Assembly: GCA_036172245.1 (NCBI GenBank)
Contig: JAYWIR010000003.1
Location: 1,984,001-2,048,000 of the forward strand
Source of the DNA: Raillietiella orientalis
Taxonomy: Eukaryota
Direction: 5' to 3'
Length of the DNA stretch: 64,000 bases
The notes beneath the pieces are model-generated. The model did no database searches and was not told where the DNA came from. It saw only the letters and a program-made list of their open reading frames with translations. How positions within the stretch are numbered: position 1 is the first letter of the stretch; every line of letters begins with the position of its first letter. A program made the translations under genes and the position numbers. Below are positions 8,833-60,028 of this stretch, in pieces.

Positions 8833-10856
8833 CTGAAATATTATGATCATATTACCTGAATTATAACTGCTAAGCAAACACGAAATACATATAGTCATAA
8901 CAAATTACAATACATAACATACTCTAACATGAGCAGCTGTGTCCTCGATTCGAATTATATTTTCGAATGTATGACAATGTATGCCTTCATCATACACTCT
9001 TTAGTTTTGTCCACCTGATAACTTTATACAACCATTACCGCAAAAAAAAAAAGAAAAGAAAGAAAGCACTTATCAGCATCGTGCTCGGCAACTTATAAGA
9101 ACCAACCACGTTACCACCTGAACCCACATCCTAAGTACAATCATTGCATCATGCATACGTGTAACGACTGAAATGGAAAAGGCTGGGAAACGTGTTCACA
9201 TTCACACAAATGGTTACTAAATGGCATAGAAAATCAAACTTAGTGTGGATCAAAGCTAATAATATCTGATTGAGATTACCGGTTAAAACGTGTACGTACT
9301 ACCGAATTGTTGCATTCGTGTACCAACATCTGCATTCAAATGAGCGTGACTAAAAGAGTTGCTAAAGTTGCTAAATTGAAGAAATAATGCACTGAAAGCA
9401 ATTCGAGGCAATCAAATCAAAGTTATATTCTTTTAACAAAAAAAATTATGAAGATTCAGAGTTTTTCTTTCAGAGCCACATTTTTTTGTCCCCTACTTCT
9501 TCCAATGGATGTACTTTAATTGTTGGTGATGCACTGAGAGAAGTACTTTATAATTGAAAAAAAATTTGAGATCATCGCATCAAAATAGAGTAAAATAGTG
9601 TAAAGAAACCAGAGACTTTTATGTATCATCCTGCATCCTGTAAAAACCAAATACAATGGATGGTGCAAATACAGCTTTGCAGATTCTGCTACTTGAAAAG
9701 CAAAAAATTAACTGAAAATAACTAATCAGGAAAAAGTGAATCATGCTGAATGATGCCATCACTAATTACAACTTCATTTCAAAACACTGAAACATTTTTT
9801 ATTGTAGAAACAGTGAATATTTCAGTTGTTAGTTCTTCAATTTCTTGAGACCTATGAATTTCAGGTGACAATACACTGTTGTATGAAATGAAATTATGAT
9901 TTTATTATATCTCAATCACGGAAATACTCATCCTTTTGATTGTGAAGTATGTGTACGTAATGCATTTCAAAAGTTTCCATTTAGAAGCTTCATGTGAAGT
10001 CACAGCAATATGATTTACCCATAATCCATAATATGAAAATAACCATCTTCAGTAATAAGAAATGAGGATCTAGAAAATAACTAGTCGTCTTATTCTTTGT
10101 TGTAATATCATTGACTGTTTTAGGAAATGTATTCTAAACGGTTTCCGGTGCAATCTTTGTACCACAAGAAAATATCGTATTCTACACAGATGTTAAAGCA
10201 CTATTATTTCTGTTTCTTTTCCTTACTTATAAAAATAAAGGTGGACCAGACTTCTGTATCAACTGATCAACATGTGAGTTATTGAAATCATAAAACAGTT
10301 CCATTTCTCATTGATTATCTAGTGAAGAAGTGACCATAGCAAATTTTACGATCATCCAAATTAATGATAACACCATATGAATTCTCTTGCCCATGTTCAG
10401 ACTTTTCAACACTTGTTCTCTCGATTTTTTAATACGTTATACGAATTTTTTAGTCAAGAAGTGTGCAATGGAGCTGGTTGGCCGAGACATTCGGGCGTGG
10501 CACTGGTGGTCGTTTTAACGTTCCCCGATGAAGGCCGGAACAATGGGATTTGACTTCTAATTTCCTTTTCCAAAGTTTTAAAAGATCCTTTTGGATCATA
10601 TACTCACATCATGTGCCTGTCTTACATAAGAAATGCAGCTCCTGAAGTCACAGATAAATTTTCATTTCAGTTACTACATCTCAGTATTCTTAAATTACTG
10701 TCCTAGGAAATGTCCGAATATGAATAATTCTGAAAACCCTAGGGACTAATAAACGTGGTAACAGTGCAAATAGCCTTGTGCTATAGCAATGTTAATAAAT
10801 AAACTCAAAGAAAATTTGGAACAGAATGAATGGCGCAAAAAATTCTGACTGAGAAC

Positions 10857-12414
10857 TGAACTGACCGAATCAATGGGAAAAGGATTGGGCTTAAAAATCA
10901 ACGCCTAGAAGTCACAGCTGTTGCCTATCGGGATCCTGGACCTCTTTGCGTTAACGGTGACGGAATTCCAGTCGGTGGACAAAAAGTACCTGGGAATCCG
11001 CGTTGGAGATGTCGGAGATGCCTCGGCGTCCAAATTTTGCGGAGGGAAATCCTAAGAAAACTCAGGGAAGAAGACTCAAAATGCATTCGATTCGACTTCA
11101 GCATGAAACAGAGGACGAACTTGTGTAACGGGATGCTTCTTCTCAAGATGCTCTTCGGGGTGGGTTTCTGCCAAGTGGATAAGACGAGGATGGAGGCGAA
11201 ACAGTTACAATGGAAGATTTTATGAAGAAAACACAAGCCGCAAGTTACGCTGACACTTTTATGCCGCTTGCGAAAGAAAGGTGAGACCAGGGCGAAATCG
11301 TTGGAGCAATCCGTGGACAGCCTGGATGCGCGAAAACTCCTGGATCTCACTAACTAGGACCAGTGGTTTTATGAAGCACACAGGACCTACTCGAAGTTGA
11401 CAACTCAAGATGCTTGATTTCATCCCTAATAAACAAACATGGAGGATGGGAAGAAATCGACCTTACGTGGAAACGAAAACAGATAATGATAATGAATCAC
11501 CAAATCAAGACTGCCTCGAAGCAAGGAATTATGACAGGAAGAACTGGCAATGGTGATCCCGTATTTCATAGGGGTCTCTTGGGAGAACTGGAAATGGACA
11601 ATCCAAAGGTTATGAATAACCATCCGTGACTGCGAACAGTTCTCAACGACTGGCAGTTTCCATAAAATGCGACTGTAACTCTGCATTATGAAAATGATGG
11701 AAAGATTAAGCCACAGGACTCTCGGGCTCTAAAAGAAATTAGACAAGAATCTGGAAGAACGATTGTACTACCGGACACTCAGGATCACATCCTGATGTTC
11801 TACCGTGAAGGAATACTGAGTAGCTACAGAACGAAGCACTGGACAGACAACAGCCACGACGAGTTCTGCATGGCATGTAGAGTTAAAGAAACCCAACTTC
11901 ACCATCTCACCTGCCCGACGCTACTCCTGGACTGGGCAACGCTGATGCCATTGATGGGCCTGCCGTAGACCCCGAGAATGAAGATTTTGGCGGAAACGTT
12001 TGAAGGGAAAGGAAACGTACCCTGATACAAGCCCATGGTCCTCACTAACATCACTCTCTTCATCACAAGCATCGCGATAGGGGCAAAAATGAGCAACACC
12101 AAAGCAGTAGTGTTTGGCATCCTAAAGAGAGTTTTGCAGAGGGAAATATGTATCAGGAACTGAGACGAAATACCCGCCTGGACATACCGTTGCATGTTGA
12201 AGATGCCAGATGATTACCCAAGTGAGTGGAATGCTCACCAGACCCAAATGATCCCATCCCAGGGAGAGAATACTGAATATGACACAAGAAAGTAACACCC
12301 AGAGGTAAACTTTTCTGTCTAGAAACACTGAACAAAGTGTCTGCAATAATGTGTAAATGGAGGAATTGTATGAAAGTTCAATAAATTCACCCCATCGCTG
12401 GTCGGACTGCGAAA
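10857..12414 (+). mobile_element. 5'-truncated, decayed non-LTR retrotransposon (L1/Tx1-like ORF2 C-terminus), copy A
   Basis: Broken frames give REILRKLREED and DHILMFYREGILSSYRTKHWT..FCMACRVKETQLHHLTCP, a zf-RVT/CCHC-type end homologous to ORF 28109-28720. 3' end is AATAAA (12380) plus hairpin. Candidate 9-bp TSD ACTGAGAAC at 10848-10856 and 12415-12423. Confidence 0.75.
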
Positions 12415-13462
12415 ACTGAGAACGCAGAATAATTCTCTTCGAAGCAATTTAAGCATTTTGTAACTTTGCATTTATGATGTGGCTAAGGATTTTTCAGGCC
12501 TTCCAGCCTAACGCTGTGATTTTAGAGCATAATCGGTTTTGTTTTTCATCGATTAGGAAGCATGTAACACATGATTACCAATTTTCCTCATAGGCGATAG
12601 AACTTGAAAATTTTACATGAAATAACCTTAGCTGAATAGTGAAAAAGAAAAAACAAAAAAGGCAGATGTCTCTTGTTCGTTTATTTGCAGTTTGATGTAG
12701 ATTTCCTCCTTATATTTTTCCACTAAGACTTAATCGGGCAGTTGGAGCTTGTCTGATAGAAATAAGTAATGAGAAACACCGTATGAATGTAAGGAATATT
12801 TTAGATCCTTTTCCAGCTTGTTATGATGGGGAAAAGCTGAGTTTTAAAGATGGCGTTCTCAATGATAACCATGAAGCTGCGACTATGAAACGGAAAAGGC
12901 GATTATGAGATTTTCTCTTCCTGGTGAAAATTTGATCAGATTGAAGTTCTTTGAGGGAAATGATTATATGCGGTCACATGCGTTGGTGCATTGAGCCCTG
13001 AATGTTGGAAACGAAAATCAAGATATTTTAGTATGAATGAATGAATGCAGTATGAGTTTGTTTTATCATTTGAGTCCTATTTAAACATCGTATGGTAGAG
13101 CGCAGAGTTCGGAAGACTCTGTATCAATATGACAATGGTAAGATTAAATAATAAAAAGATGAAACAATAAATACACATCAATAAAAACTTTTTCCCCATA
13201 TCAATTGGATGTACCAGTGCATGTGTGATTTATGGAATACTTGCAGTGAAGGATTGCTTGTGGAAATGTTTATGTATACGTCCCATTGCAATGAAATGCG
13301 TATTATATGAATATGCTATTTTAAAAGAACTAATGATAATTTTTCATTCATCAGTATCTTCTGTATGCCTTATACATGAGTGTCCCCCGCACTACACCAA
13401 GAATAGTAATTCTCTACGAGAAAGAAAAAAAAAATCACATTTATTGCCAAGCGTAATTCATT

Positions 13463-15200
13463 ATGGAAATGAAGAGCTTGGATTTTTCCTTGTGGTGGTT
13501 GTTTCCATTGTTTGGATCTATATACTTGATATTTTGTCCCTATACTAAAGTGGAAGAAAGCTTCAACCTTCAAGCAACTCATGATATATTGCTTCACACC
13601 AAACACCTAGATAAAGTATAGCAGTTTCTATTTAAGGTCGTTTTCTATGGGGGTTATAGTATGATCATTTAGAATTTCCTGGAGTTGTGCCACGTACTTT
13701 TCTGGGACCTATAATGCTTTCATTTTGTTCATATCCATTTGTTACATTATTGCAAACAATGGGGTATTCCAAATTCTACATTCAGTTTACAGGTATTTTG
13801 CAGAAAAGACTTGATGTTATTTTTTATTTTGTGAAGTTCGAGGCATTCTTTTGGTTGGAATGTCCTTAGCATACTGGAGGTTTTCAAAAACTGTGCAGCG
13901 TTTGTTTGGTGCTGATACAGCAAAATGGCTACATTTGATCACTGCTTCGCAGTTTCATTTTCTGTTTTATGCCAGTCGAACACTTCCCAATACTTTGGCT
14001 CAATTTTGGGGTAAGATAGAAAACTTGAAAATCATAAAATTTTGTAGTTTTATGGGCATTTCATTATTGGATGCTGGGAAAACAAGATCAGTTTTTATGT
14101 ATGGCTGGGATTGCATGCCTTTGGTTCCGTAGTGAACTTTTCATTTTGTTGGGTATATTGCTGTTCCAAGGAATACTGCGATCCCAAGTTTCCATTCAAA
14201 GGTTAGTCTTGCCCATCCCAAGTTTTATCTAATTTGATCATTCCCAGATTATTGTGGAAAGGGATTATATTAGCTCCTATATTGATAAGCATCTCTTTGA
14301 TTGTAGATTCCATATTTTGGAAGCGTTTTGTATGGCCAGAGGTTGAAGTCTTATGGTACAACACAGTGCTCAATCAGAGCCATAACTGGGGTGTATCCTT
14401 GCATCATGATGCTAAAAAGTTTTTTTCTAAGCTCAAGTCAGACCTTGCCTTTTTTCTGGTACTGGTATTCAGCACTACCTCGAGCTCTCGGAGTAGTCTT
14501 GCCTCTGGTTGCTGTAGGACTACTACTTGATCATCAAATGATCCTGTGGCTACTCCCATCACTCTCTTATATCTCATTGTATTCCTTTTTACCCCACAAA
14601 GAGTTGCGCTTCATTATGTATACAGTGCCTATCATGAATTTAGTAGCCGCAAGGGGGTGCACACTTCTTATTCAGTCATCTTATAAGTGGAGGATCATTT
14701 TATGGACACTTCTACAAGGGAATCTCATCATAACATCTTTGCTACTGTATGTATCTTCTTATAATTATCCTGGTGGCATTGCAATGATTCGATTGCATAA
14801 CCATGTGAGTCCAGTGCAACCAGTGAGAGTGCACTGGGATAATTATTGTGCTGAAACTGGTATCAGTCGCTTTCTGGAAATGCATTCTCAGTGGAGGTGA
14901 GAAACATCCATCACTTTATATACCATGATTACTTTTTGCTCATATAGATACAACAAAACAGAAGGCCTTGCTCCCATATTTCTAAAAAACTTTACGCATT
15001 TGCTAGTGGAGGCCAAAGGATCTAAAGAAATCAAAGATTACCTCAAAGATTCACATGTTGTTGCAGATGTCATTGAGGGATTTGGAAATATTGCTACAAA
15101 TTGGTCCCAGTTACCTCCTTTCTCGATTTTATTAGAAAGCAAAGTGTTGCTATTGGAGCAAAAGGGTTTGGGATGGGGAATGAAAGTTGGTCATAATTAA
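13463..15200 (+). CDS. ALG12: Dol-P-Man:Man7GlcNAc2-PP-Dol alpha-1,6-mannosyltransferase
   Basis: [91 protein letters not shown]. Exons: 13463-13615, 13660-13792, 13837-14010, 14048-14201, 14248-14392, 14442-14896, 14948-15200. Confidence 0.96.
14393..14441 (+). other. U12-type (minor spliceosome) GT-AG intron, 49 nt
   Basis: 5' end GTATCCTT is the U12 donor consensus. Branch-like TTTTCTAAG has its As 11-12 nt before the AG. Removal restores SHNWG|TLPFFWY. Confidence 0.8.
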
Positions 15201-15249
15201 TATGTAATTTAGCATGCATCTTTTGCAGGCACTGCTTTGATCAATAACA

Positions 15250-16014
15250 ATGGGAGTAAGTATTGGTAAATGGTTTGAAGGCTAATACTTGAAATCTTAA
15301 TGTCTTTTTTTCAGAGAAGTGGTCAGAAGCGAAAGTACGCAGCTATGAAAAAACTTATCAGCCTCCGTGACCCAAGAATGTAAGGAAACCTGTGATACAA
15401 CAGTGGTTTAAATATCTTTTAGAAAAAAAGAACAGCAAGAACCCCCAAAACAAAAAGTTACGTTAAACAAAAAGTTAAACAAAAAGAAAGCTCCTGAAGA
15501 GACTAAAACTCGTCATGTGTAAGTTAGTTTTCAGTTTGCTTGTTTCTTTAATTGTTTTTTTAGGACTAAAGTGTCTAGTGCTTTATTTTTCAAACATAAT
15601 ACTCAGCTAGGCCCACCATATCACATTTTGCTAGATACTAACTTCATCAATTTTTCTATAAAGAATCGGTTGGATGTATTGCCCTCTCTCATGGACTGCC
15701 TTTATGCAAAATGTGTGCCCTATGTAACAGACTGTGTCATAGGAGAGCTAGAGAAGTTAGGTGCTAAATATCGAGTAGCACTTCGTATCGCTCTTGATCC
15801 TCGTTTTGTGAGATTGGCATGCATGCATGCAGGCACTTATGCTGATGATTGTTTAGTACAGCGAGTTACTCAGCATAAATGTTTTATTGTAGCAACATGT
15901 GATAAGGATTTGCGACGTCGTTTGCGCAAGATTCCAGGAGTTCCCATTATGTACATATCTCGGAGAAGATACACAATAGAGGGCATGCCTGATGCTTTTG
16001 GTGCTCCTAAATAA
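15250..16014 (+). CDS. FCF1: rRNA-processing protein FCF1/UTP24, PIN-domain nuclease
   Basis: [78 protein letters not shown]. Exons: 15250-15255, 15315-15379, 15423-15518, 15564-16014. Confidence 0.97.
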
Positions 16015-16043
16015 AATACACCTCATGCTTGGTACCAGTTTTA

Positions 16044-16793
<750 letters not shown>

Positions 16794-26399: not shown

Positions 26400-29300
26400 A
26401 TATTAATGACGAGTCACGGTTTGTATCCTCCCAAAATTCTCAATTCAAAGTGTACAACGATTACTGTTTCTGGGAGAGGTTAAACACGGCAGTAAATGTC
26501 GAGAAACTGTACAGGAAGCGAAAAAAATGCTTCTCGGGAGAATGCGGATTTCGTTTAGAACCCAAAACTGCAGCCTTAGAGAAAGCATTTTTCAATCTTC
26601 TGCTTTGGTTCTCCGCCTCTTTGGAAATATCGCACCTTGCAATCTTGATTAACACCTGTTGGAGACAATTATCTGATCATGCACCATGTGTTCGAATTTT
26701 GTTGAGGAATTTCGAGGCAAACCGCCACTTGCAAAATTTAAAAGGGAGCTTTTTCAATGCTGTGACATTTATTAGTTATTTTCTGGATACCGAAACCTTC
26801 AATCTTGCCGCTACTTACACTGTAATTTCAAATGCCTTTATTTTCACAACTCGTACTAATGTTGTAGCTCAAAATTTAGTAATGACAATGAGTCGAGGAA
26901 ACAAAAGTCATAAGGGTAGCAGGTGACTTCCACCTAGTTCCATGGAACCACGAAAACCAAAGAGGATTTCCCCATGATCTTCCATTATGTAATGCAAGAG
27001 CTTCCACTTCATAGGTGTCTCAATTAGTTTCCAAGCATTTCCACTTCCGTGTTCCCTATCGGAATGGCTGCAAGGATCTCCGAATTTCCGCCAAATATTT
27101 ATAGGGGATGGCATGTGCTCCGCTCGCAAGGCCGCAGCTTGTCGATCCGAAGGAATGACTAAAAGACTAAATGACTTGTGGAGGAGCAGAATTACGAGAT
27201 CAGAGTGTCCAAAAAGCCTAAAGACGATTTGCGAATCTGATTTCTTGTCTCTCGCAATGCTGTAAGTTCACACAGTGGTTATTCAAAGCTTTGATGAGGT
27301 GTAGATTTTAATGTTTGCTTGTTTACATCCATGATAGAATGAATGTCTTGGAGAAGACTTCTGTCATGCTATGCAATCCGTTAGTCAGTGCATTCAGGAA
27401 TCTTGAAACCTTTCTTTCACTCCGGAACATTTTCATTCGCTCCATTTTTTTTTTTTTTTGGCAAGCATGTATAAATTCTATTAATGTGACCAGCATATGC
27501 TGATTTTTCCTTTAAAGACGTTCGGTATTTTACAAGGAGTATTCTTAACTGATTTAAGTTTTCAAGAACCACCTTTATCTAATTTTACTCTGGAATTCCA
27601 GTTTTTTAATCAACAGGTCTATGACTGAAGCGTTCATCAGGAAAGAATACTAAGAGATTCAGGTTTCTTCAAAAGGAACGATCATTTTTTTCCTGGATAA
27701 AGAAGCAACAGTTCCGGTCAGAGTTTGAACCTTTTTCTAGTTTAAAATGAAATAGACCTACTTTATCTATAATTTTCGAATGCGCTATTCCTATTCGGCA
27801 AAAAATGGAAATCAAATTGCTTTCTTCTAGTAGCACTTCCCTGACCGTAATCCAGTCGGTCGCACAGACAGAGCAAACAGGTATTGGCATGTTAAAAGTA
27901 AGCAGTTGACTCTTGAATGAGAAACACTCATTTCGATTTTCCCCAATCCCACAAGGGTGGGGTAAATTTATTTTTCTTTTACATTCATACTACATTTTCA
28001 TTCGCTCTATTCACATCCCTAAAGTCACTTTGAGGTCACTTTCTTGAGTTTTCACTGAGGTTCTGCACTTAAGGGGAACTAGGCGTCGTTTGTGCCCGGG
28101 AGTTGTCCTCAATCCTCTTCAGGGTATGTCGGTACTTCCAGGCCGGCACTCTTTCGCAATTTCTTATGCCGACCTCCTCCTGGATAAGCGCTTTCAGGAT
28201 TTCCATTGGAGATACGGTCGTCCTGGCGGTCTTCATCTTCCATCACCACACAAGTATGGCGGTGATGAAGAGGGTGATGGTCATCCTTACCATGGGATTG
28301 TAACAGGGAACGTTCCCATTTCCTTGGAACACGCCTGCTAAAATTCCCATGGTCGATGTGGTGGGCAGTCCGATAGCCCTTTTGAGGGGGTGCCACTCTT
28401 GTTGCATAGTGGGACAGGTCAAGACATGTATCCTTGTCTCCACATGCTTTGCAGGCCTCATCTTCTCTTCTTCCCGTGAAGTGCTTTATCCTAGACCCGC
28501 TCAGGATTTCTCCGTGATAAAACATCAGGAGGTTATCCTGGGTGTCTGGCGGTAGATCCCTCTTCCAGAGCGTTGTTCCGATCGCTAACAGGTTGATCCT
28601 GTCATTCCCGTAGCTGTCGGCGGCTTCTTGGAGGACACTGGTGTCTTTGTCCTCTTCTTTCATTAGTCTTCGGAGGTCCTGCTTGTTGACCTTGGACCAC
28701 GCAAAATTGTTGTTTTCCACACTTCGCGTGTCCTGTGGGTGTATCTTCCTATCACCATCTCAATGTACTTTCGTACTCTAGAGTGGTGAAGGTATCTTCC
28801 TCGCCTTCATGCTTGAATTCTTTGCAAGGTAACTCTGAGCCTCTGGTAGATCCAGCTCCTAGTGTCAGAAGACACTAGGAGCATCCACGGGATCATCAGG
28901 ATGGATTCCTCCTGCCAGAAATCCTTGCTCCTCGGCACGATTTTCAGTTGGTGCTTTCGCTGTATCCTTCTCCATGTTGGATCGATGGTTAACCATTCCC
29001 CTGCTCGGCCTAGCAACGCAGTCATCGGACCCTTCGGGTTGTTTAACAACAGAGAATAGGCCCTGTGCGCCGCATGTGGCCAGTCGTCCCAGTGGGCAGC
29101 GATAGCCAGGATTTGTCGCGTATCCACGTAACACTCATTTCGATGCCTTTCATTAAGAATAAACTTTCTGCGGCTTCCAAATCCGTGTGAATATGTAGTA
29201 AACTTTAATTGAAAGTTCAGCGGCGCATTTCGAAATTAAAAGAGGAATTGTCCACCACCTCCACGGTTTCGACGGCTTGGCCGAGGGGAAAGTGCAGTTC

Positions 29301-45064: not shown

Positions 45065-45651
45065 ACACGTCACTCAGATTGGAGTCCTATCATATGCGTA
45101 TGTAATATGTTTGTATACAACGTGTAGATATTGGTTTTAGCAGTGCATGGTTAATTAGTATAAAATTCTCATCCTTCTTGTTAATCACCTATTTATATAC
45201 ATATCACATTTACGTACTGACCTTGATTACGCGTTACCATCGCTACATCTCTGCAATCATAGCCTACTATTTTCATGAGCACCTCGACCATTAAGTGGAT
45301 GAGAATGAGGGACGCGCACCGAAATCAGAACTGATATTCGTCATGCGTATTTATTTACCACTCTGAAATTGCAACCATTTTCCGTGACACACTACGCACG
45401 CGCTGGAGAATGCTCCGGCGTATCCTCCGTGCATCTGTTCCTAACGAATATGAGGGAGGCATTCTTCACGTGCTGCGCGGTGTTATTCCCGAGGAACGTG
45501 TTCTTCCTTGTCTGTTAGTCCAAGCTGCCTTTCTCCCTCCGATTCCCACCGAGCGCTCGTTACTCGGCGTTGGGCACACAGCGCACCCTCGTTCGGTTCC
45601 AAACGGGAAGTTTGTTCTTCTGTGAGTCATCGAAGAAAGCAATATCAGCTG

Positions 45652-48600
45652 ATGGTTCAGGAAGCGACCAACGTCGAGCACGTTCAGTTGCGAAAACGCG
45701 ACGTCATCAACCATGCCTCTACCACCACTTCTGCTTCGGTTGAGAATGGTGCCCGTGGTGGTCGTGACAGCAGCAACCCTGGTTGCCTGCTGTGTCTGAA
45801 CTTGGATATGCTGTCCGACACGGAAAAAAAGACGCTGTGGAGTGTTATCAACAGAGATGAAGCCCTCAAGCGCAGAGAAGAATGGCGAATCAAGTAAGTA
45901 CGTCATCTTGAATGATTCCGAAAGAAATAAAAAAAACAACAGCAAAAGATTCGCTCGCGTAAGTGTACTATTCTACTGTACAGTATGTGTGTGTGTGTGT
46001 GTTTTTTTTACAATCTACAGTAGAAATAAAGGATTCTCGGAATACTTGCGATGCCGGATTTCCAGTGGGGAGTTCCGGTTTGTTGGTCTGACAGCTCACT
46101 TCTTGGTCAGAGATGTAATAGGTAAGGACAGAACCAAAGAATTCTTATTAAGAATTGCAAGTGGTATTTCTCGAGGAGCTGTCTTTTCACAGATCGGTGT
46201 TCTTCTGTGTTTTTTTTTGCGGTTGTTATCGTTGTGTTGCTTCTCGTTAGCAGGAAAGATCTAATCGGCTAGGATTCTCCATTTCAGAACTGCAAACAGG
46301 GACAGATGTATTTGTGAATCTTCGTCCTTGTGCACAAAGTCTGTAATTGTCCTGCTCGTGATTTGTCGTCCGGGTTCATTTTCTCAAGAGCGCGAACGAG
46401 GCGTTCTTCTTGAATTTCCACGAAGCGTTTGCTCCCACGTAAAATTCACGCAAATGCATAGAGCAACGGTTTCCGGTGTTAAGTGGATGTTCCTAAAGAG
46501 TGCACTTTTACAGAAAGACGTGCTTTGTATTTATGGAGCACACACTGGCACCTCAATGTCAATTCATTCTCTTTGAGTTTCTTCTTCTTCTTCTTCTTCT
46601 TAGCGTTGCTTTTACGCAGGGTTTCGCATTTTCTGAATGTGGTATCGCAGCTATTCATTCAGTAACGATGACGTCAATCGCTAATTCTGCTCCCATAAGT
46701 TTAACCATGCTGAGGCGAATATAAAGACTGCAAAAACAGCCTCTGATAATGTTCTTGGATTGCGTCATTTATCTGACATTTGGAAGGAAAGAAACACATC
46801 CGTCAAGCTAGGGTACACGGTGGATCATGCCCGACTTGCTCCATGGTTGAACTGGCGAATTCAATAAACCCCACGTTGGATGTGATTAATGGGATTTAGC
46901 GCTCAGTGTATCCGAATGGGAGGTCCAAATTGAATGCAGGATGATTGTGCCATTGGTTTTTCCTTTTCCAAACTGAACTCGAATCCGACGAAAAGCTTCC
47001 GCCTCCAAGGAAAGTCGACTGACTTGCGGAATACACCTGAAATACTTCACCGAAAAGCTTTCTTTCAGAGGTGCGGTAGACAATCAGTACCGTGCGAACT
47101 GTGCTCCTTTCTGAGAGGGGAAGAATGGGATTTCTGTTCTCTTTTTTCTTTTTTTCCATTTTTGATCTCGTAACGCAAACACTGTGCAGCGAATGCGATC
47201 GGGATGACGGCAGGAACGAAGGGTCCCGCTAGTTTTCTGTATCCCAAGTTCTCGGCTGTCTCAAACATCCCACTCGAAACCGCCTTTTTGCAAGTCCGCA
47301 AATCGACTGCAGGTCTTCACCGCAATCTCTCCCCCCTTTCCCTCCTTCCTCGAATTTGCCCTGCCATTGTCCGCGCATTCTGGAGTGGGGATGCCGGGAT
47401 GGCGGGCACCGTTGCCTCCCCAACCTGAGAGACCTCGAACGGACATGGCGCGTCCGCCGCCTCCCCGCACTGCATTCCCGAAATCTGGCAGGACCTCGCT
47501 CTTGACCTTACACGGTGCCGATGCAGACTCCGGTTCCATCTGGCTCTGCTTCTGCGGAAACCGAGCTTCCCGGTGCTCCTCTTCGTTTCAGCGTGCACTC
47601 GCCCTCGGGTGCCCGGTCTCCCGTTAAGGAGGCGGGAACGAACACCAGTAGTCTTTTTCTTTCACTTGTCGGTTGCTAGCGTTCCTCGACAAGCTGCCCT
47701 CGGTGTTCCCCACCCGGGTGAGAGGGGTCCTTCCTGCGCGAGGTTTGTTCCTGCTGAAGACGAGTGGCCGTCCACGTTTCACCATCCACCGTCCTTACTC
47801 TTTTCCTTCTTTCTTTTTGTTTTCTTTCAGCACGCGGTTCCGGATTTCCTGCGACCGTGATCGTCGGAAGGGAATCCGCAAGGTGGCCTGCAGTTGTTTT
47901 GAACCCGGTGACACCGGTTCCTTCATGGAATCAACACACAGTAAAAAAAGAAAGAAAAATAGACTTCAAGTTTGGGGGCGGGGATGTAAGAGAAACAAAC
48001 GCACAGGGGAGCCGGGCGCCGCGGACGAAAGGTGCTCGGTTGCTCTCTGTCCGGTTGCCGTGTCGACGCGGAACTCTGGCGTGGGAGCGCGTCGATAGAC
48101 GGGGAGATTCCCGAACGATCCGCGCCGGTGGCACGCGCGCGCCAGGCTTGCTGCTCCTTCAAGGCACCTGCCGCATCGGGCACGTCGGCTCGGCCGAGCT
48201 CGGGGGCGCGGAGGACGTCACTCCCTTCCACGTCACTGGCTCTGGAAGCGCCGCCCTTCCCGCGTCGGACTCGCCCTCTTCGTCTTGGGGCTCCGAAGTG
48301 CCACCTTTCGGGCGGCACCGGAGTTGCGCGGCCGTTCGAGGAGCGCGCTGCAGGTGCGCGATTCCAGGCGGGGCGAACGCCGATCCCTTGGGTTACACGC
48401 CTACGCCTCTTCGGAATGGTGGTGGGGACGCCCTCTGATCTCGAAGGGTCCAGCTATCGGGGTGCGTCCTCTTCCTCCAGTTCCCTCGGCACCGGGGATG
48501 GAGGCTCGGAGGGAATGCGAGTGAAAGAGGTGGAACGATGCGTTTCTTTTGTGAGGCAACTTCCCTCCGTGGGGGGGAAACTAAACAAAAAAGGGGAATC

Positions 48601-51600
48601 TGAATGGGGCCTCGGCGGAATCAACGCCCGGGTTCCGTTTCCGCTCGGTCCACAGGGGCTGCACGCGGAAACGACTCGGCGGGTCGCATGCCATCCCCCG
48701 CGCCCGGCAAAGATCATGGCAATGCTATCGTTTCCCCGGCTGCGAACGGGCTGCCGCGAGATGGGCTACTACTCGCCGGCACACCGCTGCCCTCCTGAAC
48801 ACCTCAAGGGCCGCGTCTCTGTGCCAAACCGCCGCCCTACTTCTCCTCGTCCGCTCCTCCCCACTCTTGCTTCTCCTTCGGCTGCGTTGAGCGTTCCCCC
48901 CCCCCCTCTTTCTCGGAACAGAGCTTTCGAGAGTCGCTTTCTGCTTTCTTTGCCTTTCCCCTCGCCCACGACTGACACGGGCATCCTCAGCGGCGCCAAC
49001 CGGAACAGGCAGGAATGGAGTATAAAAAACCTAGGAACGGTGTGCAGTGCCACTGCCCACGCTCAAGCGAAAGCTGCTATGGCAACGGACCTCTCGGGCG
49101 AATTTCCGGATTCGCGAAACGTCCCCAAAGATCTTCGGCGTCGTGGCCCGCCGTTGCTGGCCGCACAGATCGAAGAGACTGCAGCACAAAGAGGAGTCCC
49201 ATTTGCTCCACAGTCTCTTCGATCTGCTCCACAGTTCCAGGTAACCTTTCAAAGCGTCGGAAAATGAACGTCTCCCCGAAGTCGAAATCCGTTCTCCCTC
49301 CGCAACCCGCTCGACACATTTGGGTCCGCGTGACGACAAAACAAGAGAGCTCGTTTTTGTGAACCGGCCAGCACGCCCGAGCGATGCCAGTAGATGCCGT
49401 TTCCCCGGAGATCACCAGCGTTCCCCTTTGATCTGCAACAGCAGCCCCTTGGCGCCCTTGCGCGTCCGCTGCCGTGGGTTGCGCTACTCCCTCCCCCGTC
49501 TGGGCAACCGGCCGTCTTTGTGGCTGCCCGCGTTTCGTTCCAACTTCTGTGTGTCCGTTCGTTCTGCAGCCCCGGTACCCTTTCGCCGTGTCTCGTCAAG
49601 CAGCCTGCGAGGCTCGGATGGTGCAGAAGCTGTGTCACGTGGGGACGCGGTGCTCTCGAACGCTTGCCGTACTTTCCAGTCTCGCGGGGCTTTCCGTTTC
49701 GAAGCATCAGGGAAGCTGCGCGAACACTCTCCCGCTGCAGCGACCTGCCGTGAAATTCTTCCGCGCTCACGCCTCATCACGAACGATTAATGGCAGTAAT
49801 TTCTCCGTCTGTTTTCCATCCTCCCTTCCTCACGAAGCTGCCTGTGCGTGTGTGCCCGGGGTTTCACGGAGACATGTACTCGAGCGCATGCGCACGCGTG
49901 TCCTTCCGTATACGAAACCCACCATGCTTATCGCACCCGTTAGCGCAAACAGCGGCATCTGTTTTTTCTTCTTCTTCTTCTTCATCTTCTCCCTCCCCCT
50001 CTCCCCCCCGGCACCAGATGCGAAGCGTGCGCCGGATGCCCCTCTCCTCGAAGAGACCCAGGGTCGTAAGCGTTTGCGAACACCTATCCCGTGCCAAGGA
50101 AGCGAACCCTATTGTGCACCTCAGGGCAGAAGCCCCCAGCTTCGGAGCGGGTCGGCGGCGAGCTCTCGTTGGCGCCAGCGTGACTTGGCCTGGATTGCCG
50201 CGCCTCCCAAAATTCAGCGGGGCAACGCCCGCCTGGAAAGAAGTCCTCCGCCTCTCCTCCCCCCGAAGAGTCGACTGTTCCCCGTGCTCGTGCGTGTGCA
50301 GTTTATGCGACCATTTCCAGATACCCGACTCACACGCGCGCTCGCACGCACACGCACTCGGTACGAGTCCCTTGGGTCCACCCCCGCGCGTAGTTGTCGT
50401 CGCGCGCTATCCAAAAAATGAATAAATAAGTGCCGGGCGGTTCCACCGAGCCCCACAGAGAGTGCGGGCAACGTCGAGGGGCGCGCCCTTACACCCACTG
50501 CAGGGCATCTCCCTTTCCACCAGTTGTCGAACTCTTCTAGGTCACGTACGCCTCCGTCGTTCCTGGCGTCGTGGGAGCGCCGCATTTGGGGTTCCGCATG
50601 GTCGCATGCTGTTTTTTTTTTTTTTTTTTTGGCTTCTCTTCCAAACGCATCGGTCCAGCAGTGGTGGTGGGGAGGAGTGTGCGAGTTTTCCGGTGTGCAC
50701 ACTTTCGACACGCGTGCGCTGTCACTCGGGCGCCCTTGCCTGGTGGACTCGGGGGTGTATGCACCCGCATGAAAAGTGCCCGTGGGTATCGCCTCCGCTG
50801 ACGACTTTTCCGGCTCCTTCCCGCTCTTCCAGCTTCCCAAGATCGCTTGTGAATGCAGCCGTTTCCTCATCTCTTTGCTCATGTTGTCTTGTGTTGTTTT
50901 TCTTTTTTCCCCCTCGAGTGCTGAAAGCCAAGCAGTGCTTGCATGAGGGTTGGTTTTTTTTTTTTTTTAAACAAAAAAGAAAAGAAAAGAAAGAAAAAAG
51001 AAAAGAAAAGAAAAAATATATAGGGAGAAGGGGGAAAAAAAAAATGAACGGATGACGTCAGCGAAACGCGACAACATGCTTGCGCAAGCGCAGCTTGCAA
51101 ACACGAGTGTGCATCCGGTTTTATCGCATGATGGTGTGCGCATTGTTGTGGCGGCGGCTGCGCGGGGCGACACCAGTTCGAGGCGGTGAGTAGGGGAGGA
51201 GGAGAATGACGTCAAGCCTCCTCCCCAAGCGTGCGAACCGTTGACGGCGCGCGTCACGCTCGAGATGCGGTGGACATCGGGCTTCCCCCCACGACAGCAG
51301 TTGTGGACGGTGGCGGCGGGACTCGCTTGCCTGGGAGCAGCCGAGGTGCGAGAGCTCTTCGCGCGTTTCCGTCGCCATTCGCCTCTCGCAGGAGGAGGAG
51401 GGCAGAGCGCGCCCACGGTGGCTCAGCCGGGGTGGGGGGGCAGGCACACTTCCCACCGCCTCCCGGCCTGGCTGATCTCCGTCCGTGCCTTTGAACCAGA
51501 CCCTTATCCTTTCCAGCCGCCTGTGGACCGAGCTGCAGTACTTGCGCAGGAGGTCCGTGCTCCGGCAGTCGCAACAGCCGTCGCCGTCCACGTCGAAGCC

Positions 51601-54600
51601 GAGCTGCATGCGATGCAAGGTGCCCCTGGGGATGTTCTTCTGTCGCGGGGAGCGCTGCAGGTCGTGCTCCCAGCTCGTCTGCAGGTCCTGCCAGGAACCC
51701 GACTCGTTCCGCCCCGGTTTTTGGATCTGCAGCTACTGCAACAAGAACCGGTCAGCAGCGCGGCGGCGACATCGCTTTCCTCACACGCACAGACACACGC
51801 ACGCACGCGCGCACTCCACTCCCGCTCCCCTTTCCTTCTCCCGGAAGAAAGAAAGAGAGAGAGAGAGATGGGGGTGGATCCTGCCAGGACCGCCTCCGGT
51901 GCACTCTTGCGTGTTTGCAGGGAGCTCCAGCTGGCCTCCGGTAGCTGGATGAACGCCTTCATCCGCCGTTCGAGCAGGCGACGCTCTCCCCGCTACGTGA
52001 ACGCAAGCAGGGAACTCAAGGAAACCCTCCGCAGGTCATGGGGCGGAAAAGGTACGCAGCCAGGTTAATGCAGGAGCCAGATCAGAGCATGCACCGCAGA
52101 AAGCTCACCTTCTAATTTAAGTCCCAATTATAGACCTCTGTCGGTAGACGAGTTTCAAAAGCTGTCGCTATCGCTCCGAACCCGTTCCCCGACGCAGCAC
52201 CAGTGCTTCCCCAAGGAGAGCAGCAGCGATGCCCGGCTGCCTCCGCTCCCGGGCAGCGCGCCCGGCCGAAACGCCTTGCTGCTCCTCCTCTCTGCGGCTG
52301 CTGAGGACGGTGGCTCTTACAGCGCCGCCGCCTCCTCCCCGAACGACTCCCCCCGTTCGTCGTCGTCGCCTCCTCCGCCGCCGACCCTCGGCGGGATGGA
52401 GCTCAGGAGGCGCAGGATGCTGCCGGAAGCGCCGCCGCCCACGTACCGCGCCTCCTTGGACGACGTGTCCGGCGGCAGCGCGGACGATCCTGCGCGACGC
52501 AGCGTGGCCGACTCCGGCATTTACGACGAGCTGCTCAGCCAGTCCGCGCCCGAGCTGGGCGCACCCTACAACGACGAGGAATCCGTGGCGGCGCACTCTC
52601 CCACGAAAGGTGATTGATCTCTTTCTGTGTTTGAGGGTTCATCTCTGTATCCCGAGCAAGACATACATGCCACCAAAGTGTATTGTTTTCATTTCTGCCT
52701 GCCTGCCTCTCCTCCCTTCTTGGCTGCTACTCCCCCGGCAGCCTCCCGAGTGTGCCCTTTCTGAATCACAAGAAAACCTTGCAGCGGTCTCGCCTTTCGT
52801 GGGCTGGACGTCCCGGTGAAACACGCCTGCGCCGTCTCCGCCAATCGCCAAGACGCTCACGAAATCGTTCACCTTCGCCCGCTTCCCCCCGGGCAGCGTG
52901 CAAAGAGCGAGCGGAAGTAACGGCGGAGGCAGCAGCATCAGTCTCGCGCGGAAGTCAGCTCATCCCGAACCCAGCCAGCTGTCCCCGCGGTTGCTTTCCT
53001 TTTCAATAGCGCCTCGAGGACATGGCCTGTCCCCGGGGACCGCAAAGTGAGACGGAAGCGGGCGGGAAACCGCAGGACATCCTCTTTAGACCCGCCAGTC
53101 GAGATTCTTCCGGATAACAGGGGGAATGGCAAAAGGGGAGGGCCAGGGAAGCGTTCTTCGCCGTTTCGGAGGGAAACCTCACCTCCGCGCTGTTGGTGGC
53201 ACAAGAAGCGCTTTTCGCGTCCCGCTTATCACCGGATGTGTCGTCACTGTGTTCCGTCAATCGGTCGCCACACGTGGAGAACCCCCATCATTCAATCGCC
53301 CGGTGATTACTTGCGTACCATGGGAGGCGATCGTTCCACTCGTGCACGTGTACCGTCAGATGCGCTCCGCCGCTGCCGGACCTCCGCCTCGGGGTGTTTG
53401 CTAGTTCCGAGAAATTCCGCGAGCTGCCGCGGCGGCGCACCTCCGGCGCCGATTGTGGGGCAAGGTGCAGGTTGACGCGCCCGCGCCCCAGGTGCTGCTC
53501 CCGTGCGCATCAATGAGGGCGGCGGATAGAACGAGGTAGAAGGGGAGAGGGGAAACGTTGGCGTTCATCGCCGCCAGAATTGCACGCGGAGCTTTCTTTT
53601 CCCTCCTCCACCCCCCCCCCCTTCGCTCCCACGCTTGGCCGAAACTTTCACTTCTCCACGAGAAGCGCACGCCTACGGAAAAAGCCTAGAGGGTGTGCTT
53701 TCGTGTGCACCGGGGATCGAGCGTGGAGGGAGAAAGGCTCATCCGCGGAGAGGAAAAAGAATAGAACAAAGGCCAGACGTAGCAGCAGCAGCAGCAGCAG
53801 CAGCAGCAACGCAGCCTCCGCTTCCCACCCTCGCACCCCCATCCCCCGATTTTCGTTTTTTCCTGCACGAAACGCGAACGGCGGTGTGCAGCTGCCCTCC
53901 CGCTCGCTCGCAGCTGCCCCCTCCTCCCCGCGCCAACCTCAAGGTTGCCAACTTGCGCGTGCGCGTGGCGGCGGAGAGAGACCTACTTGCACGCGCTCAG
54001 GCACTCCTCCCCAACAACCGCCCGCGGATAGGAGGAGGAATCGACGTCGCGCGGCCGCTCCGGTTCTCTCCCGCTCGCGCGCATGCGCCCCCCACCTTGT
54101 AGCGAATCGAAGGATCCGCGCGCGCGTTCCACTTGCGCAAGCCCTTCCGCCAGTGCCTGTGTGAGCAGTGAACGAGCACCGGTGTGCGCGCGCGTCGTCT
54201 GTCTTCGCCCGTGCCACACGCACGCGGAGGGAGAGAGAACGAAGACGAGAGAGAAAGGGAGAGAAACACAACAAAACAAAAGAAAACACACAAAAAAAAA
54301 AGAGAAAAACAAAGAAGAGAAAGAAAAGAAAACAGCGTGCGCAGCCAGTCATTGCCGGCTCGGCCTCCTCTCTCCTTCCTGCCCACCCGCGCTCCTCCCC
54401 CCTTCCCCCCCCTCCCTTTTTTTTTTTTTTTTTTTTTTGTGCGTGCGTGTGTGTGTGTTCTCTCCCGTCGTTCTTCGCTTGCCCGTTCCGCACGTGGCCC
54501 CCTTGTTTGCTCCCTGTGCGGTGGACTCGCAGCCAGTGTTCCCCCCTCCGCCTTCAGTGAAACGTGGACCGTACCTTTCCGTCTCGTGGGGAATGACCTC

Positions 54601-57600
54601 CCGCTTCGTCCCGGCGCCGCGGAGCGGCTGCACGGGCGGCGGCTGCGCAGCGTCGCGTACACGCACGCTCCAGAGACCGACGACAACGACGACGACAACT
54701 TTTGTGAGGTGACGGCAGGGCCCGCGCCTGTGCCCAGGAGACCATGAGCGGCGCGCGGCGCGAACTTCGGGCGGCGCCGGAAACCCGCGGTCCCACCCCT
54801 TCCGCGTGTCCGCGTGACCACCACCACCACCACCACCACCACCTGCTCTCCCGCTCCCGGAAGGTGGAGGTGGAATCGCAAGAGGTCACCATCTTCTTCC
54901 AAGGTCGCCCCTCCCCGGCTTCGTCCTGCGTTCCTCATGGAAACCTCAGCTGGTGGGTGCGGAAGGGAGGCGCGCTGGCGTGGCTTCCCCCGGCACCCCC
55001 CGACCACGTGAGCTGCGTCGTCATCCGCAGCAGGGAAAGCTCGCCCGAGAGTCCGAGGCGCCCCACCACGCTCCTGACGAGGAGCCGCAGCTTCAGCGAC
55101 GGGGAGCCCCGCCAGGGAGGGACGCTGATCCGGGTGGGAGGGGGGACCGACCCGCCGCCAGCGACCATGCCCCCTGCTTTCCTCCGGACCGGCAGGGCAC
55201 GATCCAGCGTGATCGAACAGTACGTCGCCTTCTTCGAGGAGAAAGGAACTGCCCCTGCCTCCCCCGACGGGCCGGCCCCGGAAAGCGGAGGGTGGCCCCG
55301 CCGCCGGCAGCCGACGAAGACGGCGGCTGCTGACCCCGGGCCTCTCCGCCGGGCCGGCAGCCTACCTGCCATGCCACCCATGCCGGCCCCCTGCGGCGGC
55401 GGCGGCGACGACGACGACCGCGCGGCGGAGGACAGTTGCAGTTCCCCCGAAGTCCTGATGGCGGGCGGAGCGGAACCGGAACCGACGAGCCCATCTCCCC
55501 CGCTCCTCCTGCGAGAGGTGGACATCCGGTGGCAGGAGGACCGGGCCGGCCTCAGCACGCAGGCTGTGGACCGTCCCATCGTGCCGCGCGGCGCCGGCCG
55601 GGAACCCCCCGTGGAGCGGCCCCTCCTGCTGCAGGGCGGAGCCGGGAGCGGCGACCCGCGTTCCGGTCCGCTGGTTCGGGTCGTGGAATCCCCCCGGGCG
55701 GTGACGGTGGTGCCCATCCGCGACAGCCGCCGCGTAACCGTCATCCAGGTGACGCCCGATCCGCTACCGCCGCGCGAGGGGAGTGTGGAGACCAACGTCC
55801 CTTCCCTGCGCGGCTGCCCTGCCGGTGACGATCGCTCGCCTCCTCCTGCTGCTCCTCGCAGTCCCGGCGCTATGGAGACGCCCGAACCCGCCTCCTACCC
55901 CGGCAGTGACGATGAAGTGCGGCGAGAGGACGTAGAAGAAGACAGTGAAGGATCTGCGTGCACGCGGTCCTCGCGGCAGGACAACTCGGCATCCTCGGAG
56001 GAGGAGGAGGAGGACTTTGACCTCGGGGAAGAGGGAGAGGAGGAAGACACGCTGCTGCTGGACCGCAGGAGGTTCGCGCACTTCCCCCTGCACACCATCG
56101 TGGAAGAGAGCGGGGAGGAGGAGGACGAGGAAGACTTCGGCGGCGACGACGACGACGACGGCGCCGGCGAAGGGGAAGAGCTGGAGGAAGAGGAGGAAAG
56201 GCGGAGGCAGCAGCAACGGCGGCGGCGCCCGCCGGCGGCCTTCGGAACTTCGCGCTTGGAGCGCTACTTTGTGTACGACCTCGCCGGACAGTCGGAGCAC
56301 GAGAGCCGCCGGGTCGCCAACGAGGACAGCGAGTGCAGTGATTCCTTCTCCGAGACGTCCGGGTCGGTCTTCAGTGAGGGCCTGGAACCCTGCGAGGGAA
56401 CTCCCGTCTTGGAGACCTACTTCATGACTCGTTTCGTAGGGAGCGGTGCCTCCCCGGACCTCCCGCGGAACGGCGGTGGCGGCGGCGGCAGCAGCAGCAG
56501 CAGCAGCAGCGACGGCGAGGACTCTGGGGAGGATCCGGCCGCAAAGCGGAGGAAGCCACGCTGCTGCCCCTCAAGGAGTCGCGCTCCCTGCCTCCGGGAA
56601 GAGGAGGAGGAGTGCGGGCGGCGGCTCCCGCGGCCGGATCTCTGCGGGGACGGTTGCGAGGATGGCCAGAGGGACAGCGGGTTCGCCGGCAGCTCGGACA
56701 ACTTGTTGCCAGGACCCCCCACGGACGGCGGTGGTGGCGCCGAGCCGAAGCAGCGGGAGCGCCCGAGCTCCGACGACGAGTCCAACCGCATGGTCGGCCG
56801 CCTGAGGACGCTCGTCCGAAGCTGGTCGTCGGGCACCGCCGGCGGCAAGTCCCCGCAGCTCGTGGAGTTCGAGCGCCGGCTGACGGAGCTGATGCGCGCC
56901 GTCCCCGGGGTCGATGAGAGGGATGCCCGAAGATTCGTGGGGTACCTCGGCGGTTTCGAGGACGCCTGGAGCGACTCCTCCTGCGGCGGTGGGAGCAGCA
57001 GCGGGCGAGAGAACGCCACCACCGTGCCCGCCACCGTCGCGAAGGTCTTCCGGCACGTGGGCGAGCGCCTTGCGGACCTGGTGCGCGAGGTCTCGTCCAT
57101 GGGCAAGCCGCCTCCGCCTCCCTGTGGCGGGCGGGTGCCCGCGGACGAATTCCTCCCCCTCCTCGCGCCGCCCCCGCCACCCACCCCCCCGCCTGCGCTC
57201 CGGGACCCCGTCAGCCCATCTCCCTTCATCCTCGAGGTGTCATCCGCCCAAACCCCCGGTGAGAACGCGGAAGACGCGGCGCGGGTTGTGCGGCCGATGC
57301 CGTCGCCGACGCGCCTTGTGGAGGTTCGGGGGACCAGGAAGCCCTCCTCGCGCGAGGATCCCACCGATGCATCTTCCTCCTCTCCGCCCCACCCTACCAC
57401 GTGCTTCTCTGGCGCCGTGAAGTCCGCCCGTTACCGACCCGTCCTCGACCCGACCCAGCAGCAGCGCACGATTCAGGAAAGATCGTGTCGCCGCAAGGTC
57501 AGCCGGAGTGAAGAACGTAAGTCCTGACCCGAGAGTCTTTCTGCATGTGTGCGCCCTCCTTCCTCCTCCTCTTCCTCCTCCAGCTTCCCGTCACTCCCGA

Positions 57601-58370
57601 GGCAGTGAGTGTTGCCGTGGCGCTAGTCGCTGCCCCAGCCGGATAGGGAAAGGGGAGGGGGAGGAGAGAGAGCTGGTCGTCCTCGCCGGTTCGCGTGCTG
57701 CCGTTGCTCTTCCTCCGCCCCATGATTGCATGGCGGTGTCGGGGATCGAAAGGTTTGCATCGGATGCAGTTTCCCTCTGGGGTCCAAGGGCAGCGCATCC
57801 GAGACCACCTCCTTCCCTGCATGTTTTCCCCTTTCGTTTTCGTTTCGGTTCCTCCTTCGCTGTGGTACTTCACGGCTTTTTAACTTACCCTTGTGAAAAC
57901 AGGAAACAGCTGGGGCGCCCAGAGTCGAGAGTTCACGAGTCCGCACGTCTCCCTCCTTCTCCCTCTCTCTCCCCAGCCAGCTTTCCATCCCGTAAATAAT
58001 AGCGTGGCGATTTGTGTGTGTGTGTGTGTGTGTGTGTGTGGCCAATTTTCCTTTTGTATTGTTGCACGTGACTTCTAGTGACCTCGGCTAAGAAGCTGAG
58101 GCCTCAAGAATAGCGAACGAGCGGGCGGGTGGATTCCGAAGCGAGCGCTTCGCATGTGCTCCGAATTTGCGCCATCGTCAGCGACGTCCGTGTAGCACTG
58201 CAGCGGCCTTGTGCAGAGGGAAGCTGGATGCTGGGAGGCCATCACGAGCGAAACCCAAGTGGCGTTGTGTTCCATCACGAGGGATTGCTTCGTGGAGTAA
58301 ACAATGAAATTTTGCATTTGCATCATAGTGAGGCTTTTGTGTAAGCGATGCCTGGGATTTGTTTTTTTTT

Positions 58371-58405
<35 letters not shown>

Positions 58406-59995: not shown

Positions 59996-60028
<33 letters not shown>

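Follow-up and report, generated by a model that had tools for sequence, protein, structure and literature searches.

Tightly spaced ALG12 and FCF1 genes in the pentastomid Raillietiella orientalis: one case of a genome-wide gene arrangement

In Raillietiella orientalis, a pentastomid (tongue worm), i.e. a parasitic crustacean, the genes for ALG12 and FCF1 follow each other on the same strand at a distance of only 49 nt. This locus had originally been regarded as the best candidate in the window for an undescribed expression system. The same layout recurs at other gene pairs, and ALG12-FCF1 is thus one case of a genome-wide habit and not a locus-specific system. As a class, the downstream genes of such tight pairs do not carry a promoter signature, which, with CpG retention as the proxy, points to the absence of promoters of their own. 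We consider it likely that ALG12 and FCF1 are co-transcribed from a promoter upstream of ALG12, and also probable, albeit with less assurance, that the FCF1 mRNA is joined at position 15229 to a remote donor. A trans-spliced leader, so far a predicted element, would be the single likeliest source of this donor, a reading that we put forward tentatively.

The ALG12-FCF1 gene pair

The window, i.e. the whole stretch of 64,000 nt that was analysed, harbors the features compiled in Table 1. ALG12 and FCF1 both yield intact open reading frames after removal of GT-AG introns of 37-59 nt, and the observation that the ALG12 stop codon and the FCF1 start codon are separated by 49 nt on the same strand holds with respect to the coordinates as well as to both reading frames. 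ALG12 exon 6 matches PDB entry 9s6t_A with an E value of 1.9e-38, and the last exon can be aligned with the same entry as far as LLEQK, four residues short of the end of 9s6t_A. The tail following this point is variable and comprises 3-649 aa in 34 relatives. The nuclear proteins are without close relatives: matches of FCF1 reach at most 83% and those of HYOU1, which is oriented divergently to ALG12, at most 53%; they mostly stem from arthropods. A COX1 located on contig C282, in contrast, matches Armillifer armillatus (77%), A. agkistrodontis (76%) and Linguatula arctica (75%), all within the top four of the 120 matches listed, in line with a pentastomid. A fusion of both genes into one protein can be dismissed, as all eight donors tried lead to a stop 12-83 nt past the AG at 15228 and as the Fcf1 domain is present in none of the 34 ALG12 relatives.

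A second copy or retrocopy of the ALG12-FCF1 region was not found in the genome (210 Mb, 491 contigs). Copies of other kinds do occur. Fifty-four COX1 matches, many of them broken, reside on nuclear contigs and represent abundant mitochondrial insertions, and one sampled locus features a short tandem duplication at the start of COX2. Identical inverted duplications 9-23 kb apart are present on contigs C4 (3957766/3980604), C5 (3770343/3792661) and C82 (34058/42822) and are either true segmental duplications or assembly artefacts. Within the window, a stretch located between HYOU1 and ALG12 (10450-12420) is related to a second one at 28100-29240; both are decayed, repeat-like and higher in GC and probably constitute retroelement remnants. 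At 45450-61660 there is a large gene, rich in GC, whose FYVE-like and C2-like exons lead us to presume a resemblance to synaptotagmin-like (bitesize).

Table 1. Features in and around the ALG12-FCF1 gene pair (positions within the window)
Feature	Position	Strand	Remarks
CpG-retaining zone upstream of ALG12	12600..13462	+	CpG o/e 0.69-0.78
Strong 5' splice donor ATG/GTAAGA	13138..13144	+	score 5.6, top within 12400-13463
Weak acceptor	13430..13451	+	score 1.8; 11 nt before ALG12 ATG
ALG12 alpha-1,6-mannosyltransferase	13463..15200	+	7 exons (13463-13615, 13660-13792, 13837-14010, 14048-14201, 14248-14392, 14442-14896, 14948-15200), 488 aa, Pfam Glyco_transf_22
Two weak local donors in last ALG12 codons	15166..15192	+	
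Stop-to-start gap, 49 nt	15201..15249	+	between ALG12 TAA 15198-15200 and FCF1 ATG 15250-15252
Strong 3' splice acceptor TTTTGCAG	15221..15228	+	28 nt past stop, 21 nt before ATG
FCF1/UTP24 PIN nuclease	15250..16014	+	4 exons (15250-15255, 15315-15379, 15423-15518, 15564-16014), 205 aa, Pfam Fcf1; start context ACAATGG
AATAAA overlapping FCF1 stop	16010..16015	+	sole AATAAA between 14900 and 16100
Convergent TVP23-like gene (DUF846, Pfam)	16044..16793	-	predicted stop about 29 nt from FCF1 stop

Splice sites at tight gene junctions

All splice scores were derived from the matrices of a small gene finder trained on sampled loci. The AG at 15228, which had been proposed as a splice acceptor within the gap, is indeed strong. 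Its score of 5.9 corresponds to the 92nd percentile of 169 predicted introns from loci outside the training set, a reference whose scores are favoured upward because these introns are themselves predictions. Scores this high arise in 1.3% of mononucleotide shuffles, in 3.9% of dinucleotide shuffles, in 2.8% of 250 non-coding 49-nt windows and in none of 51 ordinary 3' flanks. A branch-like TTAAT is located upstream of the acceptor at 15197. Two ATGs in the gap, one at 15202 (ATG TAA) and one at 15214 (8 codons, stop at 15238-15240), both precede the AG, and none is found between the AG and the FCF1 ATG, so that an unspliced dicistronic mRNA, the third of three models considered originally, fits less well. 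The reported lack of AATAAA in the gap is correct (ATTAAA is also absent, with ATTAA present at 15196) but uninformative: 91% of 250 non-coding 49-nt windows contain neither AATAAA nor ATTAAA, and one of the two is found within 50 nt of the stop in just 22 of 51 other genes. As context for the single signal at FCF1, 26 of 51 other genes are devoid of AATAAA within 150 nt of their stop.

Donors close to the acceptor are far less convincing. Those at 15166 (score 3.2) and 15186 (score 3.0) would create introns of 63 and 43 nt, respectively, up to 15228; among predicted donors they occupy only the 18th and the 15th percentile. As a donor of at least 3.2 occurs in 17% of random windows, the local donors near 15228 are at chance level. 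Use of the intron 15186-15228, a possibility beyond the three models considered originally, would shift the ALG12 stop to 15238-15240 and leave a spacer of 9 nt up to the FCF1 ATG.

Further tight pairs were collected from 40 stretches of 10 kb (proteasome and DEAD-box genes), 60 loci of 3 kb (WD40, DnaJ) and 16 more; about 0.9 Mb of the 210-Mb genome thus underlies the class counts. Our own sampling yielded NUBPL-QTRT1 (69 nt), SIRT4-VPS37 (87 nt), DDX54-EF-Tu (122 nt), CIAO1-NIF3 (159 nt), PPP4C-SIRT4 (176 nt), MDH2-DDX55 (189 nt) and ACOT13-HSCB (overlapping ATGA). Additional pairs were confirmed for PGAP1-STRAP (67 nt), SFR1-MRPS18C (30 nt), SMIM20-ANAPC4 (12 nt) and COA4-RNASEH2C (26 nt), as was the three-gene chain Ku80-CHRAC1-EF1delta with gaps of 113 and 121 nt. 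The names are backed by Pfam for NUBPL, TGT/QTRT1, MDH, the DEAD helicases, EF-Tu, NIF3, Mod_r/VPS37, HSCB, BCCIP and DUF846 and, among the added pairs, for PGAP1, Mei5/SFR1, ANAPC4, RNase H2C and Ku. SIRT4, PPP4C, ACOT13, CIAO1, STRAP, CHRAC1, EF1delta, COA4, SMIM20, MRPS18C and the DDX numbers are presumed names.

Thirteen junctions were counted, comprising ALG12-FCF1 and 12 others with gaps of 12-189 nt; ACOT13-HSCB (no gap) and BCCIP-DDX (381 nt) were left out. An acceptor scoring at least 5 is present in 8 of the 13. Among ordinary 3' flanks, this applies to 0 of 51 (49 nt), 3 of 51 (100 nt) and 7 of 50 (150 nt). With ALG12-FCF1 excluded, Fisher combination yields a P of 0.0096 in the comparison with shuffles and of 5e-4 in that with flanks. 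Some of the 13 junctions were chosen for splice signals, and the seven pairs from our own sampling were tested apart: a strong acceptor occurs in 4 of these 7 vs 7 of 50 flanks (P 0.02). At the eight strong-acceptor junctions, the top-scoring local donors reach 3.2, 0.0, 3.1, 2.7, 2.4, -0.2, 0.2 and 2.1. Their median of 2.25 resembles that of random DNA (2.2, n=222), only 30 of 169 predicted donors are that low (P 3e-5), and not a single one of the eight junctions features a good local donor. In a post hoc comparison, strong acceptors were seen only where the upstream ORF is long (8 of 10, vs 0 of 4 for short ones; P 0.015). Five of the 13 junctions do not contain a strong acceptor; DDX55 and EF-Tu have ordinary local 5' introns.

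Tight pairs hold about 5 of 104 anchor genes according to a hand count that is a lower bound. Genes in convergent orientation lie just as close to each other (15-73 nt), and compaction is therefore general, as the convergence of FCF1 and the TVP23-like gene also shows; it explains the closeness of the genes, not the acceptors. At such convergent housekeeping genes, including those meeting at 16014-16044 of the window, the 3' UTRs must overlap the coding sequence of the neighbor. Two more arrangements deserve mention. A chain of PPP4C-like, SIRT4-like and VPS37 genes (contig C4, about 2390200-2393600) has gaps of 176 and 87 nt with an AG right before each downstream ATG. An intronless CpG-rich BCCIP gene is located 381 nt before a DEAD-box gene, with an acceptor of 5.6 in the middle of the gap and no good local donor.

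CpG retention and the position of promoters

In arthropod genomes with methylation, promoters stand out by the CpGs that they retain; here, CpG retention is used as a proxy for a promoter only. The genome of R. orientalis appears to keep gene-body methylation; CpG is depleted within its genes (about 0.37), and it harbors two DNA-methylase loci. In the 600 nt before free starts the CpG o/e amounts to 0.79-0.85 (36-38 genes), and before tight downstream genes to 0.26-0.34 (6-7 genes, P 2e-4); in the 400 nt preceding the FCF1 ATG it is 0.22. The DNA before tight downstream genes is coding, and gene starts and gene ends were therefore compared like for like. The first 400 nt past the ATG gave 0.56 for 39 genes vs 0.29 for seven tight downstream genes (P 0.008), and the last 400 nt before the stop gave 0.40 for 51 genes vs 0.29 for seven upstream partners, with 0.20 for ALG12. 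Seven further junctions exhibited values of 0.29 and 0.28 and no rebound. The first 400 nt of FCF1 itself, with 0.44, fall between both classes. Exceptions are DDX54-EF-Tu and COA4-RNASEH2C, with an upstream value of still 0.7, and, in the other direction, four of the 38 free starts, which do not exceed 0.33.

The CpG-retaining zone before ALG12 differs from the DNA across ALG12 and FCF1, for which o/e values of 0.19-0.48 were obtained, and we infer that it constitutes the shared promoter region of both genes. A third gene at 12420-13260 was neither predicted nor indicated by a Pfam match. The zone includes the donor at 13138, a candidate for the end of a non-coding first exon; donors of this level (5.6) occur in 2 of 32 overlapping non-coding 600-nt windows, where they probably are donor 13138 itself. 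Among four candidate acceptors, that at 13451 is alone in leaving no upstream ATG. Directly 3' of donor 13138, three AATAAA lie within 37 nt (13150-13186); no gene end was found there.

Formation of the FCF1 mRNA

The likelihoods assigned to the transcript readings below are our judgements and were not computed. Of the models considered originally, trans-splicing of a polycistronic pre-mRNA and cis-splicing from a shared upstream exon are both leading, and the co-transcription they imply is supported by the CpG and acceptor tests for the class, although DNA does not decide between the two.

Under the first of them, one pre-mRNA for ALG12 and FCF1 would originate from the promoter upstream of ALG12. 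The 5' end of the FCF1 mRNA would be formed by splicing of a distant donor onto 15228, with removal of the two upstream ATGs, and the donor would be supplied in trans by a spliced-leader RNA, in the manner known from the intercistron-less operons of Ciona. For ALG12 this would imply an mRNA whose 3' end coincides with the AG or directly precedes it, the 3' UTR being no longer than 28 nt and devoid of AATAAA, and the poly(A) signal of the FCF1 mRNA would be the AATAAA that overlaps the FCF1 stop. Extending this to the species group, it is conceivable, though far from assured, that pentastomids own SL trans-splicing that resolves Ciona-type housekeeping operons and exists beside gene-body methylation and small-ORF dicistrons. 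ALG12-FCF1, NUBPL-QTRT1, PGAP1-STRAP, Ku80-CHRAC1-EF1delta, PPP4C-SIRT4-VPS37 and others might then belong to these operons. The excess of acceptors, the chance-level donors, the low CpG values, the three-gene chains, the likeness to Ciona and the existence of leaders in crustaceans favor a leader. Counted against it are the lack of an SL gene among our search results, the CpG value of 0.44 at FCF1, the five of 13 junctions without a strong acceptor, the small number of genes in tight pairs, the tight convergent pairs and the strong-5'-donor layout at three genes.

The searches for a leader gene were of low sensitivity. Rfam SL1 was not detected among the 50 of 32641 candidates scored, six 5S loci hold 5S only, and the amphipod leader motif has no match in the genome. 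A pattern of snRNA promoter, donor and Sm site gave one match in the genome vs three in the control, patterns of donor and Sm site gave 38 vs 95 and 54 vs 96, and the snRNA promoter motif alone gave 16 vs 46, with only U5 recognisable. Six leader candidates have no Rfam match, and the only hit present in duplicate is part of an identical inverted duplication of 900 nt. The flanks of snRNA and 5S genes, when scanned for repeats, revealed no unexplained short one. A CCACTAC-type motif, a candidate for an element of snRNA promoters, is common to three U5 genes and precedes them by about 60 nt. The six U2 snRNA matches listed all lack the first 35-40 nt and begin at one common position preceded by AT-rich DNA. 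These truncated copies look like insertions of U2-targeting retrotransposons, presumably of the Utopia or Keno type.

Somewhat unlikely in our view, but next in line, is a non-coding exon ending at 13137 that is cis-spliced either to the weak acceptor at 13451 (ALG12) or to the strong one at 15228 (FCF1), ALG12 thus being nested in a 2.1-kb first intron of FCF1. Such a shared exon predicts an identical CpG pattern and unpaired acceptors, needs no new machinery and accords with the strong donor at 13138 followed by a weak proximal acceptor at ALG12. The same combination of strong 5' donor and weak proximal acceptor is found at NUBPL and DDX54 (with ALG12, 3 of 6 vs 2 of 32, P 0.02), but the layout is absent at CIAO1, BCCIP and SFR1, and a donor of at least 4.5 within 350 nt is also present in 15 of 32 ordinary genes. 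Moreover, seven exons would have to be skipped at ALG12 even though introns are mostly 40-70 nt long (140 of 169), 12-16 predicted exons would have to be skipped at DDX54, Ku80 and PGAP1, and the putative exon before 13138 is rich in ATGs (nine in its last 150 nt) and itself ends in ATG. If the shared exon holds, long-range skipping would provide one promoter for two unrelated multi-exon genes at many loci, which is still unusual.

A dicistronic mRNA of the Drosophila type, reaching to the FCF1 poly(A) signal and giving rise to FCF1 by re-initiation or internal entry, appears unlikely. There is precedent in the 159 Drosophila pairs (PMC4528330, excerpt), the pair shares a single AATAAA, and gaps of -4 and 12 nt elsewhere in the genome leave no room for an acceptor. 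In its best version, the terminal ALG12 intron 15186-15228 would be removed, ALG12 would end with MKALL and both upstream ATGs would be gone. The gene finder picked this intron, its 43 nt are a modal length, ALG12's own donors reach down to 0.3 and 2.2, and the ALG12 tail is variable among relatives. The donor at 15186 is at chance level, however, and at 4 of the 7 other strong-acceptor junctions the best donor nearby scores between -0.2 and 2.1, so that terminal introns do not explain the class. In addition, re-initiation after a long ORF, here of 488 codons, is inefficient.

An FCF1 promoter of its own in the last ALG12 exons, with a 43- or 63-nt 5' UTR intron and an ALG12 3' UTR overlapping FCF1, is quite improbable: the two local donors give normal intron lengths, overlaps of 3' and 5' UTRs are regarded as common by FlyBase and the first 400 nt of FCF1 keep their CpG o/e of 0.44, but the last 400 nt of ALG12 (0.20) lie below ordinary 3' ends (0.40 pooled), the 0.22 before the FCF1 ATG contrasts with about 0.8 at free starts, and the class is without CpG rebound.

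Functional considerations

The original suggestion that N-glycan synthesis is coupled to 18S rRNA processing is unsupported, because all pairs seen unite unrelated genes and ALG12-FCF1 was not encountered elsewhere: in 80 metagenome FCF1 loci (44 with the full 3 kb upstream), mostly from distant taxa and thus a weak comparison, neither an ALG12 nor a TVP23 match was present. The tight pairs may either constitute a set of genes with shared promoters as in Drosophila or operons resolved by a leader, which may then be the first of their kind among arthropods. If a leader is indeed added to FCF1, operons would have arisen in arthropods as well, and trans-splicing would have originated independently once more in a parasite. 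As the genome appears to keep gene-body methylation, one could then also test whether trans-splicing, parasitism, compaction and methylation loss are linked as proposed for chaetognaths. The leader, if real, would furthermore serve as a species-specific primer for parasite cDNA.

Comparison with known systems

Among crustaceans, SL trans-splicing occurs in copepods, parasitic ones included (PMC4664967, excerpt), and in amphipods (PMC5111886, excerpt); operons are stated as not reported for the trans-splicing crustacean groups (PMC7986045, excerpt). Raillietiella resembles copepods and amphipods in being a crustacean but differs in that leaders are known there, whereas no leader candidate was found beside the six 5S loci here. 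Literature searches, from whose scope subscription journals largely fall out, gave no spliced-leader report for pentastomids, branchiurans or ostracods among the matches listed and no report of operons in pentastomids; nothing relevant was found on Bka or on shared-promoter skipping.

The spacer in C. elegans operons comprises roughly 100 nt. Unlike in C. elegans, a member of another phylum, there is neither an AATAAA plus spacer nor, among the candidates scored, an SL1 gene match in our case. Chains of housekeeping genes and a TTTTCAG-like acceptor shortly before the downstream ATG are features shared with the SL2/SL1-type operons of that organism (partly PMC1488885, excerpt).

With about 5 of 104 anchor genes in tight pairs, R. 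orientalis is nearer to Drosophila, in which 2.5% of the genes are polycistronic (PMC4528330, excerpt), than to chaetognaths with 18%. The shared-promoter and dicistronic loci of Drosophila are similar in several respects: they belong to an arthropod, involve a few percent of the genes, mostly unite unrelated partners and have gaps ranging from negative values to about 300 nt, specifically -34 to 319 nt in obligate pairs (PMC4528330, excerpt). In contrast, small ORFs are over-represented there, whereas 8 of 10 long-ORF junctions here have a strong acceptor but neither a good local donor nor the signature of a promoter. A search of 12 supplementary files of the FlyBase paper gave no match for Bka, Alg12, CG8412, wmd, Ku80 or Sirt4, the polycistronic list possibly being in another file.

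The closest resemblance that our preferred reading, a leader added in trans, relies on is that to operons of Ciona intestinalis, which have no intercistronic DNA and lack AATAAA in 16 of 18 cases (PMC1488885, excerpt). Unlike the present pairs, the Ciona operons come with a demonstrated leader, dicistronic cDNAs and 3' ends, and short gaps are rare outside the trans-spliced same-strand group, whereas convergent pairs are also tight in R. orientalis (PMC1488885, excerpt). Both organisms have in common same-strand pairs less than 100 nt apart, unrelated partners, an acceptor at the junction without an evident partner donor and an upstream gene that is usually devoid of AATAAA (PMC1488885, excerpt).
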